Positions 1 to 8,295 are shown, counted from the first letter of the stretch. The stretch: 8,295 nucleotides of DNA from Naegleria gruberi (GCA_000004985.1 GG739074.1); one strand, 5' to 3'. The notes: generated by a model from the letters alone, not told the origin. Program-made: numbers and translations.

Positions 1-370
1 AAATAATGAAATAATTTTGAATGTGAATATTTAAATTTTATAAATTCACAAATAATAATTATTTGTTTAAAAAATGGTGATTTAATTAGATTTGAACCTA
101 TTTTATATTTTAATTATAATATTTAATAAATAATATTCCAAATATAGTAATATAGTAATATTATTATTTTAAAGCCATTGTTAAATAATCTGAAAAACTA
201 TTTTGATAAGTTTCATAATATTCACTATAACTACATCTATCACAACTTAATGTAATAAACATTCTATTTTGTATATTAAATATTTGTGATAATAATCCAC
301 CTGATTCTCTTACTTGTCCTTTATGTAATTCTTTATATCCACATTTTTTCTATTATTTTTTTTTATATTT

Positions 371-431
371 AAATAGTATTTATATTGTAAATAGTATTTA
401 ACAGTATTTAATAGTATTTATATTGTAATAA
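371..431. repeat. Short tandem repeat with a 10-bp unit A(T/C)AGTATTTA. An 18-bp block ATAGTATTTATATTGTAA is duplicated at 373-390 and 411-428.
   Basis: Read directly from the sequence. The core AGTATTTA occurs 4 times, at 375, 393, 403 and 413, and the 18-bp block recurs 38 bp apart. It sits in extremely AT-rich non-coding DNA 3' (on the minus strand) of the ORF that stops at 436-438. Confidence 0.8.
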
Positions 432-435
432 TTAT

Positions 436-810
436 TTAATAAATAATACTTACACATTTCTGATGATGTTGTTTTAATATTTCTTCTTGTTTGGGAAATA
501 TTTTGTTACTAGTATTAGTAGATGAAGAATCAACAATTGATAATCCAATATTATTTAAAGTATTTAAAGTTAATTGTTTAAAATCATCCTTTTCCGATGT
601 TAATGATGGTGTATCTAATATTAATTTATTAATTATTGAATTATTTGATGATTGTGATGGTGATGATATTATTGTAGGTGATGATGAATTGTGATGTGTA
701 ATTGATTGTAAAATATTATTAATTCTACCCTTCCTAATTACATAAACCATCAATAATCTAAATAAATATAATATTACTCCTTTATTAACTAGTGTTGTTA
801 ATACTACCAT
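436..810 (-). CDS. Candidate first coding exon of a minus-strand gene. The product is uncharacterised, with a hydrophobic signal-anchor-like N-terminus and a Ser/Asn-rich low-complexity region.
   Basis: There is a true ATG at 810-808, preceded by an A-rich context (AATAAAAAAATGG on the minus strand). The ORF is 124 codons: MVVLTTLVNKGVILYLFRLLMVYVI... followed by an S/N/T-rich tail. A stop codon (TAA at 438-436) is reached only if an overlapping GTAAGT donor (453-448 on the minus strand) is not used. The antisense ORF 491-694 is shorter and compositionally trivial. No homology search was possible. Confidence 0.4.
   Translation of the reverse strand: MVVLTTLVNKGVILYLFRLLMVYVIRKGRINNILQSITHHNSSSPTIISSPSQSSNNSIINKLILDTPSLTSEKDDFKQLTLNTLNNIGLSIVDSSSTNTSNKIFPKQEEILKQHHQKCVSIIY
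448..453 (-). other. Consensus 5' splice donor GTAAGT (minus strand) directly after codon TGT (Cys, 456-454) of the 436-810 ORF.
   Basis: The plus strand reads ACTTAC at 448-453, which is GTAAGT on the minus strand. The exon would end in phase 0 after ...LKQHHQKC. A possible downstream acceptor (minus-strand TAG) sits at 352-350, opening a 36-nt exon at 349-314 that ends at a second donor GTAAGA (313-308). Confidence 0.3.
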
Positions 811-892
811 TTTTTTATTAGTTTATTAATTTTAATTGATTTGAATATCATCTAATGCATTTGAATGAATAGCAATTAAAGGAAGCACTTCA

Positions 893-903
893 ATTTATAA
901 TAA
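893..903 (-). promoter_or_regulatory. TATA-like element (TTATTATAAAT on the minus strand), ~85-95 bp upstream of ATG 810.
   Basis: The sequence was read directly and the spacing is compatible with a core promoter for the minus-strand exon 436-810. In DNA this AT-rich, TATA-like strings are common by chance. Confidence 0.2.
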
Positions 904-1049
904 TATTCATATTGTAATATAACCAATGTTGTTGTAATAAATATTCAACATTTAAGAGTTACCATCAAGTTCATATATATTGCATAAACAATCAAAATAA
1001 ATGTTGAAACATTACAAAATAATCATTGATTAAATATTTAATAACTGTA

Positions 1050-2147
1050 AATGAACAATTGCATTAACAGAGGTTAGGACCACCGGTGGTATTAAAATAC
1101 CCAATCATTGTACCGATCTACAGCTACTGTTATTTAAATATTGTAATCCACAATGTATTCAAAATTCTTCTTGTTGTCCACGCACTAGTGTATTCAACAC
1201 TTTACAAATATATTAAAAACTTCCCAAAATGTTAATTAATTATTATTTTAAATATTGTGCACAAAATCTTGAACCAGCACGTTTGTAAATGCTCTGGTAA
1301 CACCTTCTTGTATAAGATTCAAACAATCAAATGTTTTAAATATATTTAACAAGTCCCATCGAAGATTTTTCAACATTTAGAAAATTGTTTAATAATTAGT
1401 CAACCCGAATTAAAGTCAACACCTTTTTATTTACGAAAAATACCCGCTAATCAACACGTTTGTTGTTTCCTCAAGATTTATTTTACACATATGGAAAGAG
1501 TGATTAATCTTAAATGTTGTTACAACACTATTAACATGACTATTATATTAAAAAATTTACTTTTGGAAAACGTGCACGATACAACGAACCTTCCCCCCAA
1601 CACCATTTACCAAATGGCAAGTTGAGCGCTCATTTCAAGCCTTGCAAGATTATTCGAGATTGTCTCAAGTCACCTTAAAAATGTGTTGTGTGCGTTACGT
1701 GTTCAACACGTTGTTATCATCATCAAGTCTTTGATCTCGGATGCTGTGAATAAGTTGTTATACATGTCCGGAGTTGAATGAAAATTAATATTGTATCCAT
1801 AGAATGTATTTAAGGTGTATGACCATCATGTAGATTGAAATCTCTTTCCGACGCTGAAAAATTAATGCGATTTTACTTTCCAAAATGAGAGGAAAATTCC
1901 TCAATGTTTCAAACTGCCGCAATTGTTTGTGCACCATTTGCGTCATTTATCACACAGATGCAACGAAGTGGTGGAGGACAACCAAGTGAATTGGTCCATT
2001 GATTAGCACAATTTTTAAAATCCGAAACCTTTACACAACATTTCTCTCAACAACAGAGAGGGAAAGGACGCAAGTGAAAAACTCTTCAAAGAAAAAAAAC
2101 AGTTCACTCAAATTTACTCAATTAACAAACTTAAAGAACTGTTTGCA
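1050..2147. promoter_or_regulatory. GC-richer non-coding block between two divergently oriented open frames. It may be shared promoter and 5'-UTR sequence, and it is dense in short palindromes.
   Basis: Composition shifts visibly, with many more C/G than in 1-1050. No ORF of 60 aa or more exists in any frame. Palindromes: ACCACCGGTGGT 1079-1090, CGTGCACG 1571-1578, CCATTTACCAAATGG 1603-1617, TGAGCGCTCA 1623-1632, CTTGCAAG 1641-1648, ACGTGTTCAACACGT 1697-1711. The 9-mer CACGTTTGT repeats at 1278-1286 and 1455-1463, with a variant CACGTTGTT at 1707-1715. A TATA-like TATTTAAG lies at ~1809-1816. Confidence 0.3.
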
Positions 2148-2279
2148 ATGCTGTTAAATATTAATAATACAAATATTGAAAATGTCATTAATCAATTAGA
2201 GGTTAGATATGAATTTAACTTGACATTATCTAATTCTAATATAATACTACAAACATGTTTTAATAGTGATGAAATGGTG
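2148..2279 (+). CDS. Partial 5' end of a plus-strand coding exon that runs into the N-run. The product is unknown and its N-terminus is Asn/Ile-rich.
   Basis: ATG at 2148-2150, then 44 codons: MLLNINNTNIENVINQLEVRYEFNLTLSNSNIILQTCFNSDEMV. This frame is open for 87 codons from 2019 (stop TAA 2016-2018) with no earlier ATG. A polypyrimidine-CAG acceptor-like site (TTTCTCTCAACAACAG) ends at 2056, so the exon could alternatively begin there in phase 2. The openness is unusual for AT-rich DNA, but the segment is short. Confidence 0.3.
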
Positions 2280-5200
2280 NNNNNNNNNNNNNNNNNNNNN
2301 NNNNNNNNNNNNNNNNNNNNNNNNNNNNNNNNNNNNNNNNNNNNNNNNNNNNNNNNNNNNNNNNNNNNNNNNNNNNNNNNNNNNNNNNNNNNNNNNNNNN
2401 NNNNNNNNNNNNNNNNNNNNNNNNNNNNNNNNNNNNNNNNNNNNNNNNNNNNNNNNNNNNNNNNNNNNNNNNNNNNNNNNNNNNNNNNNNNNNNNNNNNN
2501 NNNNNNNNNNNNNNNNNNNNNNNNNNNNNNNNNNNNNNNNNNNNNNNNNNNNNNNNNNNNNNNNNNNNNNNNNNNNNNNNNNNNNNNNNNNNNNNNNNNN
2601 NNNNNNNNNNNNNNNNNNNNNNNNNNNNNNNNNNNNNNNNNNNNNNNNNNNNNNNNNNNNNNNNNNNNNNNNNNNNNNNNNNNNNNNNNNNNNNNNNNNN
2701 NNNNNNNNNNNNNNNNNNNNNNNNNNNNNNNNNNNNNNNNNNNNNNNNNNNNNNNNNNNNNNNNNNNNNNNNNNNNNNNNNNNNNNNNNNNNNNNNNNNN
2801 NNNNNNNNNNNNNNNNNNNNNNNNNNNNNNNNNNNNNNNNNNNNNNNNNNNNNNNNNNNNNNNNNNNNNNNNNNNNNNNNNNNNNNNNNNNNNNNNNNNN
2901 NNNNNNNNNNNNNNNNNNNNNNNNNNNNNNNNNNNNNNNNNNNNNNNNNNNNNNNNNNNNNNNNNNNNNNNNNNNNNNNNNNNNNNNNNNNNNNNNNNNN
3001 NNNNNNNNNNNNNNNNNNNNNNNNNNNNNNNNNNNNNNNNNNNNNNNNNNNNNNNNNNNNNNNNNNNNNNNNNNNNNNNNNNNNNNNNNNNNNNNNNNNN
3101 NNNNNNNNNNNNNNNNNNNNNNNNNNNNNNNNNNNNNNNNNNNNNNNNNNNNNNNNNNNNNNNNNNNNNNNNNNNNNNNNNNNNNNNNNNNNNNNNNNNN
3201 NNNNNNNNNNNNNNNNNNNNNNNNNNNNNNNNNNNNNNNNNNNNNNNNNNNNNNNNNNNNNNNNNNNNNNNNNNNNNNNNNNNNNNNNNNNNNNNNNNNN
3301 NNNNNNNNNNNNNNNNNNNNNNNNNNNNNNNNNNNNNNNNNNNNNNNNNNNNNNNNNNNNNNNNNNNNNNNNNNNNNNNNNNNNNNNNNNNNNNNNNNNN
3401 NNNNNNNNNNNNNNNNNNNNNNNNNNNNNNNNNNNNNNNNNNNNNNNNNNNNNNNNNNNNNNNNNNNNNNNNNNNNNNNNNNNNNNNNNNNNNNNNNNNN
3501 NNNNNNNNNNNNNNNNNNNNNNNNNNNNNNNNNNNNNNNNNNNNNNNNNNNNNNNNNNNNNNNNNNNNNNNNNNNNNNNNNNNNNNNNNNNNNNNNNNNN
3601 NNNNNNNNNNNNNNNNNNNNNNNNNNNNNNNNNNNNNNNNNNNNNNNNNNNNNNNNNNNNNNNNNNNNNNNNNNNNNNNNNNNNNNNNNNNNNNNNNNNN
3701 NNNNNNNNNNNNNNNNNNNNNNNNNNNNNNNNNNNNNNNNNNNNNNNNNNNNNNNNNNNNNNNNNNNNNNNNNNNNNNNNNNNNNNNNNNNNNNNNNNNN
3801 NNNNNNNNNNNNNNNNNNNNNNNNNNNNNNNNNNNNNNNNNNNNNNNNNNNNNNNNNNNNNNNNNNNNNNNNNNNNNNNNNNNNNNNNNNNNNNNNNNNN
3901 NNNNNNNNNNNNNNNNNNNNNNNNNNNNNNNNNNNNNNNNNNNNNNNNNNNNNNNNNNNNNNNNNNNNNNNNNNNNNNNNNNNNNNNNNNNNNNNNNNNN
4001 NNNNNNNNNNNNNNNNNNNNNNNNNNNNNNNNNNNNNNNNNNNNNNNNNNNNNNNNNNNNNNNNNNNNNNNNNNNNNNNNNNNNNNNNNNNNNNNNNNNN
4101 NNNNNNNNNNNNNNNNNNNNNNNNNNNNNNNNNNNNNNNNNNNNNNNNNNNNNNNNNNNNNNNNNNNNNNNNNNNNNNNNNNNNNNNNNNNNNNNNNNNN
4201 NNNNNNNNNNNNNNNNNNNNNNNNNNNNNNNNNNNNNNNNNNNNNNNNNNNNNNNNNNNNNNNNNNNNNNNNNNNNNNNNNNNNNNNNNNNNNNNNNNNN
4301 NNNNNNNNNNNNNNNNNNNNNNNNNNNNNNNNNNNNNNNNNNNNNNNNNNNNNNNNNNNNNNNNNNNNNNNNNNNNNNNNNNNNNNNNNNNNNNNNNNNN
4401 NNNNNNNNNNNNNNNNNNNNNNNNNNNNNNNNNNNNNNNNNNNNNNNNNNNNNNNNNNNNNNNNNNNNNNNNNNNNNNNNNNNNNNNNNNNNNNNNNNNN
4501 NNNNNNNNNNNNNNNNNNNNNNNNNNNNNNNNNNNNNNNNNNNNNNNNNNNNNNNNNNNNNNNNNNNNNNNNNNNNNNNNNNNNNNNNNNNNNNNNNNNN
4601 NNNNNNNNNNNNNNNNNNNNNNNNNNNNNNNNNNNNNNNNNNNNNNNNNNNNNNNNNNNNNNNNNNNNNNNNNNNNNNNNNNNNNNNNNNNNNNNNNNNN
4701 NNNNNNNNNNNNNNNNNNNNNNNNNNNNNNNNNNNNNNNNNNNNNNNNNNNNNNNNNNNNNNNNNNNNNNNNNNNNNNNNNNNNNNNNNNNNNNNNNNNN
4801 NNNNNNNNNNNNNNNNNNNNNNNNNNNNNNNNNNNNNNNNNNNNNNNNNNNNNNNNNNNNNNNNNNNNNNNNNNNNNNNNNNNNNNNNNNNNNNNNNNNN
4901 NNNNNNNNNNNNNNNNNNNNNNNNNNNNNNNNNNNNNNNNNNNNNNNNNNNNNNNNNNNNNNNNNNNNNNNNNNNNNNNNNNNNNNNNNNNNNNNNNNNN
5001 NNNNNNNNNNNNNNNNNNNNNNNNNNNNNNNNNNNNNNNNNNNNNNNNNNNNNNNNNNNNNNNNNNNNNNNNNNNNNNNNNNNNNNNNNNNNNNNNNNNN
5101 NNNNNNNNNNNNNNNNNNNNNNNNNNNNNNNNNNNNNNNNNNNNNNNNNNNNNNNNNNNNNNNNNNNNNNNNNNNNNNNNNNNNNNNNNNNNNNNNNNNN

Positions 5201-6359
5201 NNNNNNNNNNNNNNNNNNNNNNNNNNNNNNNNNNNNNNNNNNNNNNNNNNNNNNNNNNNNNNNNNNNNNNNNNNNNNNNNNNNNNNNNNNNNNNNNNNNN
5301 NNNNNNNNNNNNNNNNNNNNNNNNNNNNNNNNNNNNNNNNNNNNNNNNNNNNNNNNNNNNNNNNNNNNNNNNNNNNNNNNNNNNNNNNNNNNNNNNNNNN
5401 NNNNNNNNNNNNNNNNNNNNNNNNNNNNNNNNNNNNNNNNNNNNNNNNNNNNNNNNNNNNNNNNNNNNNNNNNNNNNNNNNNNNNNNNNNNNNNNNNNNN
5501 NNNNNNNNNNNNNNNNNNNNNNNNNNNNNNNNNNNNNNNNNNNNNNNNNNNNNNNNNNNNNNNNNNNNNNNNNNNNNNNNNNNNNNNNNNNNNNNNNNNN
5601 NNNNNNNNNNNNNNNNNNNNNNNNNNNNNNNNNNNNNNNNNNNNNNNNNNNNNNNNNNNNNNNNNNNNNNNNNNNNNNNNNNNNNNNNNNNNNNNNNNNN
5701 NNNNNNNNNNNNNNNNNNNNNNNNNNNNNNNNNNNNNNNNNNNNNNNNNNNNNNNNNNNNNNNNNNNNNNNNNNNNNNNNNNNNNNNNNNNNNNNNNNNN
5801 NNNNNNNNNNNNNNNNNNNNNNNNNNNNNNNNNNNNNNNNNNNNNNNNNNNNNNNNNNNNNNNNNNNNNNNNNNNNNNNNNNNNNNNNNNNNNNNNNNNN
5901 NNNNNNNNNNNNNNNNNNNNNNNNNNNNNNNNNNNNNNNNNNNNNNNNNNNNNNNNNNNNNNNNNNNNNNNNNNNNNNNNNNNNNNNNNNNNNNNNNNNN
6001 NNNNNNNNNNNNNNNNNNNNNNNNNNNNNNNNNNNNNNNNNNNNNNNNNNNNNNNNNNNNNNNNNNNNNNNNNNNNNNNNNNNNNNNNNNNNNNNNNNNN
6101 NNNNNNNNNNNNNNNNNNNNNNNNNNNNNNNNNNNNNNNNNNNNNNNNNNNNNNNNNNNNNNNNNNNNNNNNNNNNNNNNNNNNNNNNNNNNNNNNNNNN
6201 NNNNNNNNNNNNNNNNNNNNNNNNNNNNNNNNNNNNNNNNNNNNNNNNNNNNNNNNNNNNNNNNNNNNNNNNNNNNNNNNNNNNNNNNNNNNNNNNNNNN
6301 NNNNNNNNNNNNNNNNNNNNNNNNNNNNNNNNNNNNNNNNNNNNNNNNNNNNNNNNNNN
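2280..6359. other. A 4,080-nt run of N (assembly gap or hard-masked segment). It has no interpretable sequence.
   Basis: Every base from 2280 to 6359 is n. The track ORFs 2148-6383(+), 2266-6393(+), 2192-6391(-) and 2247-6599(-) consist almost entirely of X and exist only because N-codons are not stops. Confidence 0.97.
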
Positions 6360-6611
6360 GGAAAATTTGCAGATAATAGATGACATATCATGATATGGTA
6401 TCGATTTGTACTTTCTAATGATGGTTGTATTCACTTGCGTGCATTGCCGATCATTCTTCAATATTGTGTATGTTAATCTAACAAATTCCTTTGTGTTCTT
6501 TACTACTGAGTTATGGTTATGTAACGTACTTATACTATTTACACATGATATCAAGTTATTACCGAATAATAAATATTCACAGCCTACTGAGCATGCCAAG
6601 TGTTGATACGT
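6360..6611 (-). CDS. Candidate minus-strand coding segment abutting the right edge of the gap. The product is unknown.
   Basis: The minus frame is open for 84 codons from 6611 (stop TGA at 6614-6612) down into the N-run: TYQH-LACSVGCEYLLFGNNLISCVNSISTLHNHNSVVKNTKEFVRLTYTILKNDRQCTQVNTTIIRKYKSIPYHDMSSIICKFS. The track's start at 6599 is a TTG, not an ATG. The opposite strand (6406-6606) is also open, so the true coding strand is ambiguous. Confidence 0.15.
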
Positions 6612-7278
6612 TCATATTATATGTTTGTTTATATCAGTAGGATATCTAACCAACACGTATAGTTAATATAATATTTTGCTTGCAACGAATACGCGCCAGT
6701 TCTACTCGTATTATTGTGCTCACAAAGAATAAGTTTTAAGTAAATGATAATAGACTGTCTACCTCATATTACAATGAATGAGTTAAAATTGTTATCATGC
6801 AATATGTAATAAGAATAGCCTCGAGGAAGAGCCATCATTTGTCGCGCACGAAGGGTTGAATTTACTGTAGCTGTTATTTAACATTCCTTCCGCGAAAAAT
6901 GGTGGATAAACAAGCCATGATATTATGTTTCTTGCTTCTTGCTGCAGGATGCTGAAATTTTCCCACCATGAGATATTTGAATTGTTACGAAGCCAAGAAT
7001 ATATCGCCTTTCAATGTGGTTCCAACAAGCTTTAAATGAAGAAAGTTGTTTACTGATTTGTTTTGAGCAAATGTTAAAAAGAACTCTTTTTGAAATAATT
7101 TGGTAAAGTTCAAAATAAAACAATAAAGCATGGATTTCATTTTTTGCATGCTTTGAATTATTGATTCCTCTGTTGTGTGAACAATGAGTTAGGAAAAATA
7201 GGAATAATTATGGCAAATTAAGTATTCTTAAAGAAAGATTATTAGAAAAAGCCAATAATGAGTTTTAGAAAAATCAAA

Positions 7279-7506
7279 CTATTTAAAATCATCAAATTCT
7301 TCTAATTGTCTGGCAAGTATATCATCATGTTGAGGATAATTTGGGATTGGTATGATAAATATTTCTGGATATGACATTATATCTTTGTTTCTATTGATAA
7401 TATCTCTCATTTCAGAAATCATTTCCCCATGAAACATAGATACTCTTTTGTATCTTTTGTTTAACATCTCCATAGCACGTAAATCCTTCTCAAGCAAGTA
7501 AAATAA
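7279..7506 (-). CDS. Candidate terminal coding exon of the minus-strand gene, in a different frame from the upstream exons. It ends ...PIPNYPQHDDILARQLEEFDDFK*.
   Basis: This frame is open for 75 codons from 7506 (stop TGA at 7509-7507) to TAA at 7281-7279. The listed start at 7497 is a TTG. The pyrimidine-rich tract TTTTACTTGCTTGAG (minus strand, ending with AG at 7490-7489) looks like a 3' splice site, which would start the exon at 7488 (AAG GAT TTA CGT = KDLR). The frame differs by +2 from 7464-7644, so the junction needs a 3k+2 intron or a frameshift. Confidence 0.4.
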   Translation of the reverse strand, partial: LFYLLEKDLRAMEMLNKRYKRVSMFHGEMISEMRDIINRNKDIMSYPEIFIIPIPNYPQHDDILARQLEEFDDFK

Positions 7507-7644
7507 TCAAAGGTTAAAACCTGTCCTGAAGATGTTTTAACAGTAGATTTTCGTGGTTTTTTACCTTGTTCAATTTCTTTACAAATATTTAAGTGAAATT
7601 GGCTTATATCAGCAATAGGTGAAATGATTACCAATAATGGATAT
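7464..7644 (-). CDS. Coding segment continuing the same reading frame as 7687-8295 after the 42-nt intron.
   Basis: The frame is open for ~60 codons with no Met: YPLLVIISPIADISQFHLNICKEIEQGKKPRKSTVKTSSGQVLTFDYFTCLRRIYVLWRC, then TAA at 7463-7461. The ORF track omitted it because it has no start codon. Confidence 0.35.
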
Positions 7645-7686
7645 CTTGAAATATAGCTGAGTTAAGTAATTCAAGAGGAAACTTAC
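7645..7686 (-). other. Inferred 42-nt intron (GTAAGT...TTTCAAG) in the minus-strand gene.
   Basis: The minus strand reads GTAAGTTTCCTCTTGAATTACTTAACTCAGCTATATTTCAAG. The three in-frame stops are TAA 7685-7683, TGA 7673-7671 and TAA 7664-7662, and they are the only stops in this frame between 8295 and 7464. Removing 42 nt, a multiple of 3, rejoins the frame exactly as ...ENELF-L-YPLLVII.... An alternative acceptor, TCAG ending at 7657, would give a 30-nt intron and is also frame-preserving. Confidence 0.4.
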
Positions 7687-8295
7687 AAGAATAATTCATT
7701 CTCAGTCAGTAGTGTAATTTTCAATGCAATTTCTTCCATTGCAGAGAATGATACCTCTTGTATTTGTTTCAAAAATAAAAATATATATCCCTCTGTTATA
7801 ATAGTGGTGTATAAACTCTGAGATTGAAAAAATATTTCATTATGACGACAATCAACAAGAGATTCAGTCACTGTTTTCTTAAATTTCTCCATTGCTTGAA
7901 AAATAATATCAAGTACCTGTTTGAAAAGAATAAAATTTTGTGGAGTAATTGGGGAAGTTTTCATGTGATCCCAAACACCTGGTAAAAGAAAATCTTCCAA
8001 TTTCATTGAGGTTGAGTGAAAAAATATCTTACTCAGACTTTCAAAAGTATTTTCCAAGCTCTGAACATTATTTTTGAATCTACTTGCAATTTGATCACGA
8101 TACCTTTCGAGTGGTTTGAAAAATTTGTGTTCCCTACCATCCTTATTATTCTCAATGTAAAAATTAATAATTACTAAATAATATTTCAATTTGTAGAGAT
8201 TACCTTCACCTATATATACAATTAAAAGTATGATTGCACTGGCAGCCCAATAAAATTCTGTTGAATAGTCTATTGACAATAGTGCAAATTCTTTA
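7687..8295 (-). CDS. Internal coding exon or exons of a minus-strand gene. It is partial, and the frame stays open past the window end at 8295. The product is uncharacterised.
   Basis: The minus frame is open for ~203 codons from the window edge: KEFALLSIDYSTEFYWAASAIILLIVYIGEGNLYKLKYY...AMEEIALKITLLTENELFL. The track start at 8279 is a TTG artefact. The frame terminates with TAA at 7685-7683, and that TAA is the AA-G-T part of a GTAAGT donor. Confidence 0.55.

Follow-up and report, generated by a model that had tools for sequence, protein, structure and literature searches.

The analysed window is a stretch of 8,295 nt from Naegleria gruberi NEG-M. A single uninterrupted run of 4,080 N occupies positions 2280-6359, and it is the sole N-run in the window. 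The run consists of N only and is surrounded by otherwise normal sequence, which confirms the original prediction on this point. Whatever sequence occupies 2280-6359 is concealed by the run, as had correctly been stated, and the four giant ORFs of 1,375-1,450 aa had rightly been dismissed as artefacts, being X-runs produced by translating the Ns.

Genes and base composition of the flanks

On the left side, a spliced gene is located on the minus strand in the AT-rich stretch 1-1050. The exons lie at 454-810 and 164-349, and the intron between them (350-453, 104 nt) has the form GTAAGT...AG. The spliced product of 164-810 is a protein of 180 aa, which matches Zn_ribbon_13 (PF09855) with E=5.6e-17. 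The orthologs in N. fowleri (FDP41_011374) and N. lovaniensis (C9374_003829) show 48-50% identity. A near-copy, EFC36844.1, is present on another N. gruberi scaffold (182,562 nt), with one mismatch (I to V) in 114 aa; the gene model of EFC36844.1 is 5'-partial. About 260 nt beyond the Zn-ribbon gene, a coding-like stretch starts on the plus strand, and the two form a divergent pair on the left contig.

In both N. fowleri and N. lovaniensis, a divergent RCC1/WD40_RLD gene (478-496 aa) is located 200 nt upstream of the Zn-ribbon gene, and a gene of 329-346 aa follows beyond it. The stop-depleted frame of the N. gruberi window matches the RCC1/WD40_RLD gene of the sister species in position and orientation. 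The left frame was rejected as an ortholog of the RCC1-like gene or of the 329-346-aa gene, as tblastx and a two-sequence HMM gave no similarity to either. Judged from these comparisons, synteny with N. fowleri and N. lovaniensis is broken on the side of the Zn-ribbon gene that faces the gap.

On the right side, the 3' two-thirds of NAEGRDRAFT_73164 (EFC38973.1) are located at 7279-8295 on the minus strand, with identity over the 203 codons of the window. The ORF at 7683-8279 (minus strand) is identical to this protein, which belongs to a scaffold of 304,373 nt. A paralog with 91% identity is present on a record of 209,908 nt, and the alignment of the paralog P0003 extends on to 7297. The gene model of NAEGRDRAFT_73164 appears to be truncated. 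No relatives of NAEGRDRAFT_73164 were found within 10 kb of the Zn-ribbon locus in N. fowleri or N. lovaniensis. Between the gap side and the 3' end of this gene, the stretch 6612-7278 looks like non-coding DNA: it contains no stop-depleted frame (P=0.73), no periodicity and no Pfam domain.

The GC content is 18.5% at 1-1050, 31.7% at 1051-2279, 32.3% at 6360-6900 and 29.0% at 6901-8295. A compositionally distinct block of about 5.8 kb around the gap had been proposed. The left GC step is real, but the right boundary is absent. Since the flanks at 31.7-32.3% are close to the genome average of 33-35% GC, they do not form a GC-rich block. The outlier is the 18.5% GC stretch 1-1050, which carries the spliced Zn_ribbon_13 gene.

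The left-hand frame

A plus-strand frame is open from 2019 to the gap edge at 2279 (87 codons). The first ATG is located at 2148, 132 nt before the gap, and the 44 residues after this ATG include 10 Asn and 5 Ile; the frame, its start and its Asn/Ile richness are all as originally described. Against dinucleotide shuffles of the edge-adjacent 600 nt, an open frame of at least 87 codons to the edge has P=0.017. Such edge-reaching open frames are found at 9-25% of real cut points in this gene-dense window, and this range applies to both sides of the gap. No stops are present in the frame over 2019-2279, versus 3-16 in the other frames.

Codon usage was scored with a model trained on 10.9k codons from long ORFs of the N. 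fowleri and N. lovaniensis loci, and for each of the four known exons of the window the model chose the correct frame. It replaced an earlier position-specific composition model, trained on the AT-rich genes of the window only, which was uninformative because third-position GC differs. The codon score of 2019-2279 (plus strand) is 17.8 bits, the highest of the six frames (P=0.007). This is on a par with the known exons at 7282-7497 and 167-349, which score 17.2 and 14.1 bits, respectively, under the same model. Codon usage and stop depletion bear out the earlier view that the plus frame from 2148 merits attention. We infer from them that the left frame is probably coding and belongs to a real gene; 2019-2279 is probably the start of an unannotated gene that is lineage-specific or recently dead.

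The same phase is stop-depleted further upstream, at 1068-2018, where it resembles a pseudogene or a multi-exon gene and matches no Pfam family. Over the whole of 1068-2279, the phase contains 9 stops in 404 codons versus 26.3 +/- 4.7 expected, and none of 5,000 shuffles reaches this value. A 3-periodicity is present over 1068-2279 (p=7e-4) and is strongest in 1700-2279. In the part before about 1950, the stop-depleted phase does not stand out by its codon score. The in-frame stops of the 1068-2279 phase are a mixture of TAA, TGA and TAG, and an alternative genetic code was therefore rejected. The region upstream of about 1950 may be a decayed 5' part or the 5' part of a multi-exon gene, and the 1068-2279 phase with its 9 in-frame stops may represent a dead gene.

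The left frame resembles the orphan genes of N. gruberi in being stop-free, in having Naegleria-like codon usage and in having no homolog outside the species. It differs from them in being absent from the species' own annotation; in addition, only 44-87 codons are visible, and 9 stops lie upstream in phase. Only 5,831 N. gruberi genes are shared with N. fowleri; thus, orphan status is common in N. gruberi.

The right-hand frame

The minus-strand frame of 84 codons at 6360-6611, which had been noted as bounding the gap on the right, is confirmed. It is open into the gap, and its first ATG is located only 9 codons from the edge. On length alone, an open frame of at least 84 codons to the edge has P=0.011 against dinucleotide shuffles of the edge-adjacent 600 nt. 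The codon score of 6360-6611 (minus strand) is 1.5 bits (P=0.48), and no 3-periodicity was detected in this frame (p=0.73). Two plus-strand frames, of 70 and 52 codons, are also open in the same stretch. That other frames are open over 52-70 codons indicates local composition, not selection on a single frame. According to codon score and periodicity, the right frame is most likely a chance ORF.

Whether the flanking open frames are real or chance receives a different answer on each side: the left frame looks coding, whereas the right frame looks chance. The suggestion that the two flanks could be the ends of one gene is excluded. The two frames are on opposite strands and therefore cannot be one gene, and the right frame shows neither codon bias nor 3-periodicity.

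Searches for homologs and repeats

The left and right flanks were compared by blastn and tblastx in both orientations. The matches were all AT-rich and not longer than 30 nt, and no LTR or TIR was found. In Pfam searches of all frames of 811-2279 and 6360-7281, no family was matched, reverse transcriptase, integrase and transposase included. Eighteen stop-free pieces from both flanks were concatenated and searched against 5.8 billion proteins, the N. gruberi proteome included, without a match at E<=1. Scans of the window for Rfam families and tRNAs gave no hit. Neither an exact 26-mer from the left gap edge nor a search for relatives of P0001 gave a match in the JGI metagenomes. The original prediction had proposed a transposable element under the gap. 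No positive evidence for this reading is present in the visible flanks, which show no similarity to each other, no Pfam domain of transposable elements and no related protein.

In a full HMMER search of the 87-aa left frame against 1.84 billion representatives, one match was obtained, the BTB-Kelch protein P0004 (E=1.3e-7). This protein was rejected as a relative of the left frame, as an artefactual tandem repeat of 22 aa inflates the score. The E value is spurious because the score sums 16 copies of the repeat; a single copy gives 24 bits and 13/38 identities. No Pfam BTB match was obtained for the left frame, even with a frameshift-corrected conceptual translation, and a BTB/POZ domain was rejected. 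A 91-aa piece gave matches at four loci in viral contigs. Beyond the seeded octapeptide ANQHVCCF, which lies in a frame with stops, these loci share nothing with the piece, and the matches were regarded as chance. The corresponding search with an 84-aa piece gave no loci.

Nature of the gap

The genome sequence of N. gruberi NEG-M is a Sanger whole-genome-shotgun draft (2010, GCA_000004985) of 40.9 Mb in many scaffolds, with 33-35% GC, 57.8% coding sequence and 5.1% repeats. Scaffolds of such a Sanger draft routinely contain sized N gaps. At 4,080 nt, the run does not have the round length of a placeholder, which would fit a gap sized from read pairs. The Ns are most simply taken as a gap already present in the original scaffold, which would belong to the assembly and not to the genome. 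The run at 2280-6359 shares with sized Sanger-scaffold gaps, such as those of N. gruberi NEG-M, the non-round length in a scaffold-level draft, the unrelated unique sequence on either side and the absence of a gene model annotated across it. In the features tested, no difference was found. The genome contains 15,727 genes with a mean length of 1,677 bp. At one gene per about 2.6 kb (15,727 in 40.9 Mb), one or two ordinary genes would be expected within a gap of 4 kb. The strain NEG-M has also been sequenced with Nanopore reads (PMC12344493).

According to these results, we propose with fairly high confidence that 2280-6359 is a sized gap, that the left frame entering it is probably an unannotated gene and that the right frame is chance. 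The gap would join two contigs of one Sanger scaffold. The left contig would carry, on the minus strand, the AT-rich Zn-ribbon gene, followed by the plus-strand stretch, the last 87 codons of which (ATG at 2148) would enter the gap. The left frame would be the 5' part of a gene that is lineage-specific or recently inactivated, with the remainder in the unsequenced part. The right contig would begin in the non-coding DNA downstream of NAEGRDRAFT_73164.

The gap may instead be located on a transposable element or a recent duplication on which the assembler failed, with the flanks at about 1050-2279 and 6360-6900 as its outer parts. Close copies of the two anchoring genes occur on other scaffolds. 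The Zn-ribbon near-copy and the 91% paralog of NAEGRDRAFT_73164 show that the locus is in recently duplicated or allelically split sequence, which is a plausible cause of assembler failure and leaves this explanation a minor but appreciable chance. The synteny break falls here, the RCC1/WD40_RLD neighbour is undetected in the flanks, and the left flank carries a stop-riddled frame with preserved phase and without homologs. With gaps caused by transposable elements or recent duplications, the locus shares the copies of both anchoring genes on other scaffolds (near-identical or at 91%) and the broken local synteny; it differs from them in that its visible flanks show no terminal repeats, no transposable-element domains and no multi-copy protein signal. 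The flanks have no direct or inverted similarity to each other, and none of the 12 frames contains a Pfam domain, including those of reverse transcriptase, integrase and transposase. No related protein was found in N. gruberi, although a coding element in many copies would normally leave one. The repeat fraction of the genome is only 5.1%, the flank composition is genome-average with no right-hand boundary, and the edge frames are on opposite strands. A more specific form of this idea, to which we give a small chance, is that a lineage-specific insertion, which may be mobile, recently duplicated or hemizygous, lies in the gap beside the Zn-ribbon gene. The stop-riddled frame at 1068-2279 would then be the decayed edge of this insertion, and the RCC1-like neighbour would have been displaced.

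Both frames would be real if two convergent genes, the plus-strand gene from 2148 and the minus-strand gene from beyond 6611, met tail to tail in the gap. Both open lengths exceed those of the shuffles (P=0.017 and P=0.011), a contig is likely from the outset to end inside a gene in a genome that is 57.8% coding, and a 4-kb gap holds two average gene bodies (1,677 bp). However, codon usage in the right frame is at background level (1.5 bits, P=0.48), and the frame shows no 3-periodicity and shares its stretch with two more frames that are open over 52-70 codons. It also lacks a homolog, as well as an ATG until 9 codons before the edge, and we consider this arrangement distinctly improbable. 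It is very improbable that the Ns are known sequence blanked out by the data provider and not an assembly gap. Some sequence collections do carry deliberately masked N stretches, but the present sequence comes from a Sanger draft at scaffold level, where sized gaps are routine. Furthermore, neither edge is overlapped by an annotated N. gruberi protein, as is expected beside a true gap.

Implications

The N-run marks missing data in the 2010 draft assembly, and its biological weight is small. The locus is in a genome region of which near-identical copies exist elsewhere. If the lineage-specific insertion were true, it would also explain the truncation of the near-identical Zn-ribbon copy on the other scaffold. 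For annotation, the value of the locus lies in unannotated features beside the gap: a complete Zn_ribbon_13 gene and, on the plus strand at 2148, at least one probable gene start. The sole biological residue is this probable unannotated gene start, together with the stop-riddled frame before it.

Results and discussion

The gene at the right end of the window, NAEGRDRAFT_73164 (EFC38973.1), is annotated as ending, within the minus-strand stretch 7279–7690, at a TAA that forms part of a GTAAGT motif. The alignment with its paralog P0003 runs past this annotated end, through a 30-nt in-frame GTAAGT…CAG segment (7657–7686). Beyond the segment, the alignment changes frame at approximately 7497–7503 and continues on the minus strand down to a stop at 7279–7281. 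Because P0003 aligns beyond the annotated TAA and then in another frame, the gene model looks truncated, and the gene contains either a frameshift of 1 nt or a sequencing error.

At the left end, the minus-strand Zn_ribbon_13 gene (PF09855/DUF2082; 164–810) is complete and spliced, with an intron at 350–453, and encodes 180 aa. The intron consists mostly of a tandem repeat (366–439; 1.9 copies of a 38-nt unit, 88% matches). The GC content around the gene (1–1050) is 18.5%, far below the 33–35% of the N. gruberi genome. An identical entry was not found in the N. gruberi proteome; the sole match there, EFC36844.1, is a 5′-partial model on another scaffold with one mismatch. Approximately 7 kb from the N. 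lovaniensis ortholog, a 1,242-aa product with matches to the Pfam families OrfB_IS605 and Cas12f1-like_TNB is encoded (positions 1–3109 of the locus on PYSW02000001.1), which we take to be a TnpB/Fanzor-like, transposon-associated nuclease. This product is not present at the matching place in N. fowleri.

The heptamer TCAACAC is located at 1194, 1416, 1451 and 1703 on the plus strand of the flank left of the N-run, and once on the minus strand at 6600. These five copies compare with 0.69 expected, and five were reached in 2 of 200 shuffles, a significance that is overstated because the motif was picked only once seen.

P0004, the sole match of the left 87-aa frame (2019–2279, plus strand) in the HMMER search, is a 983-aa BTB-Kelch library protein, in which a 22-residue BTB segment is repeated 16 times in tandem. 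The repeat is probably a gene-model or assembly artefact. For short queries, tandem-repeat proteins of this type inflate HMMER whole-sequence E-values.
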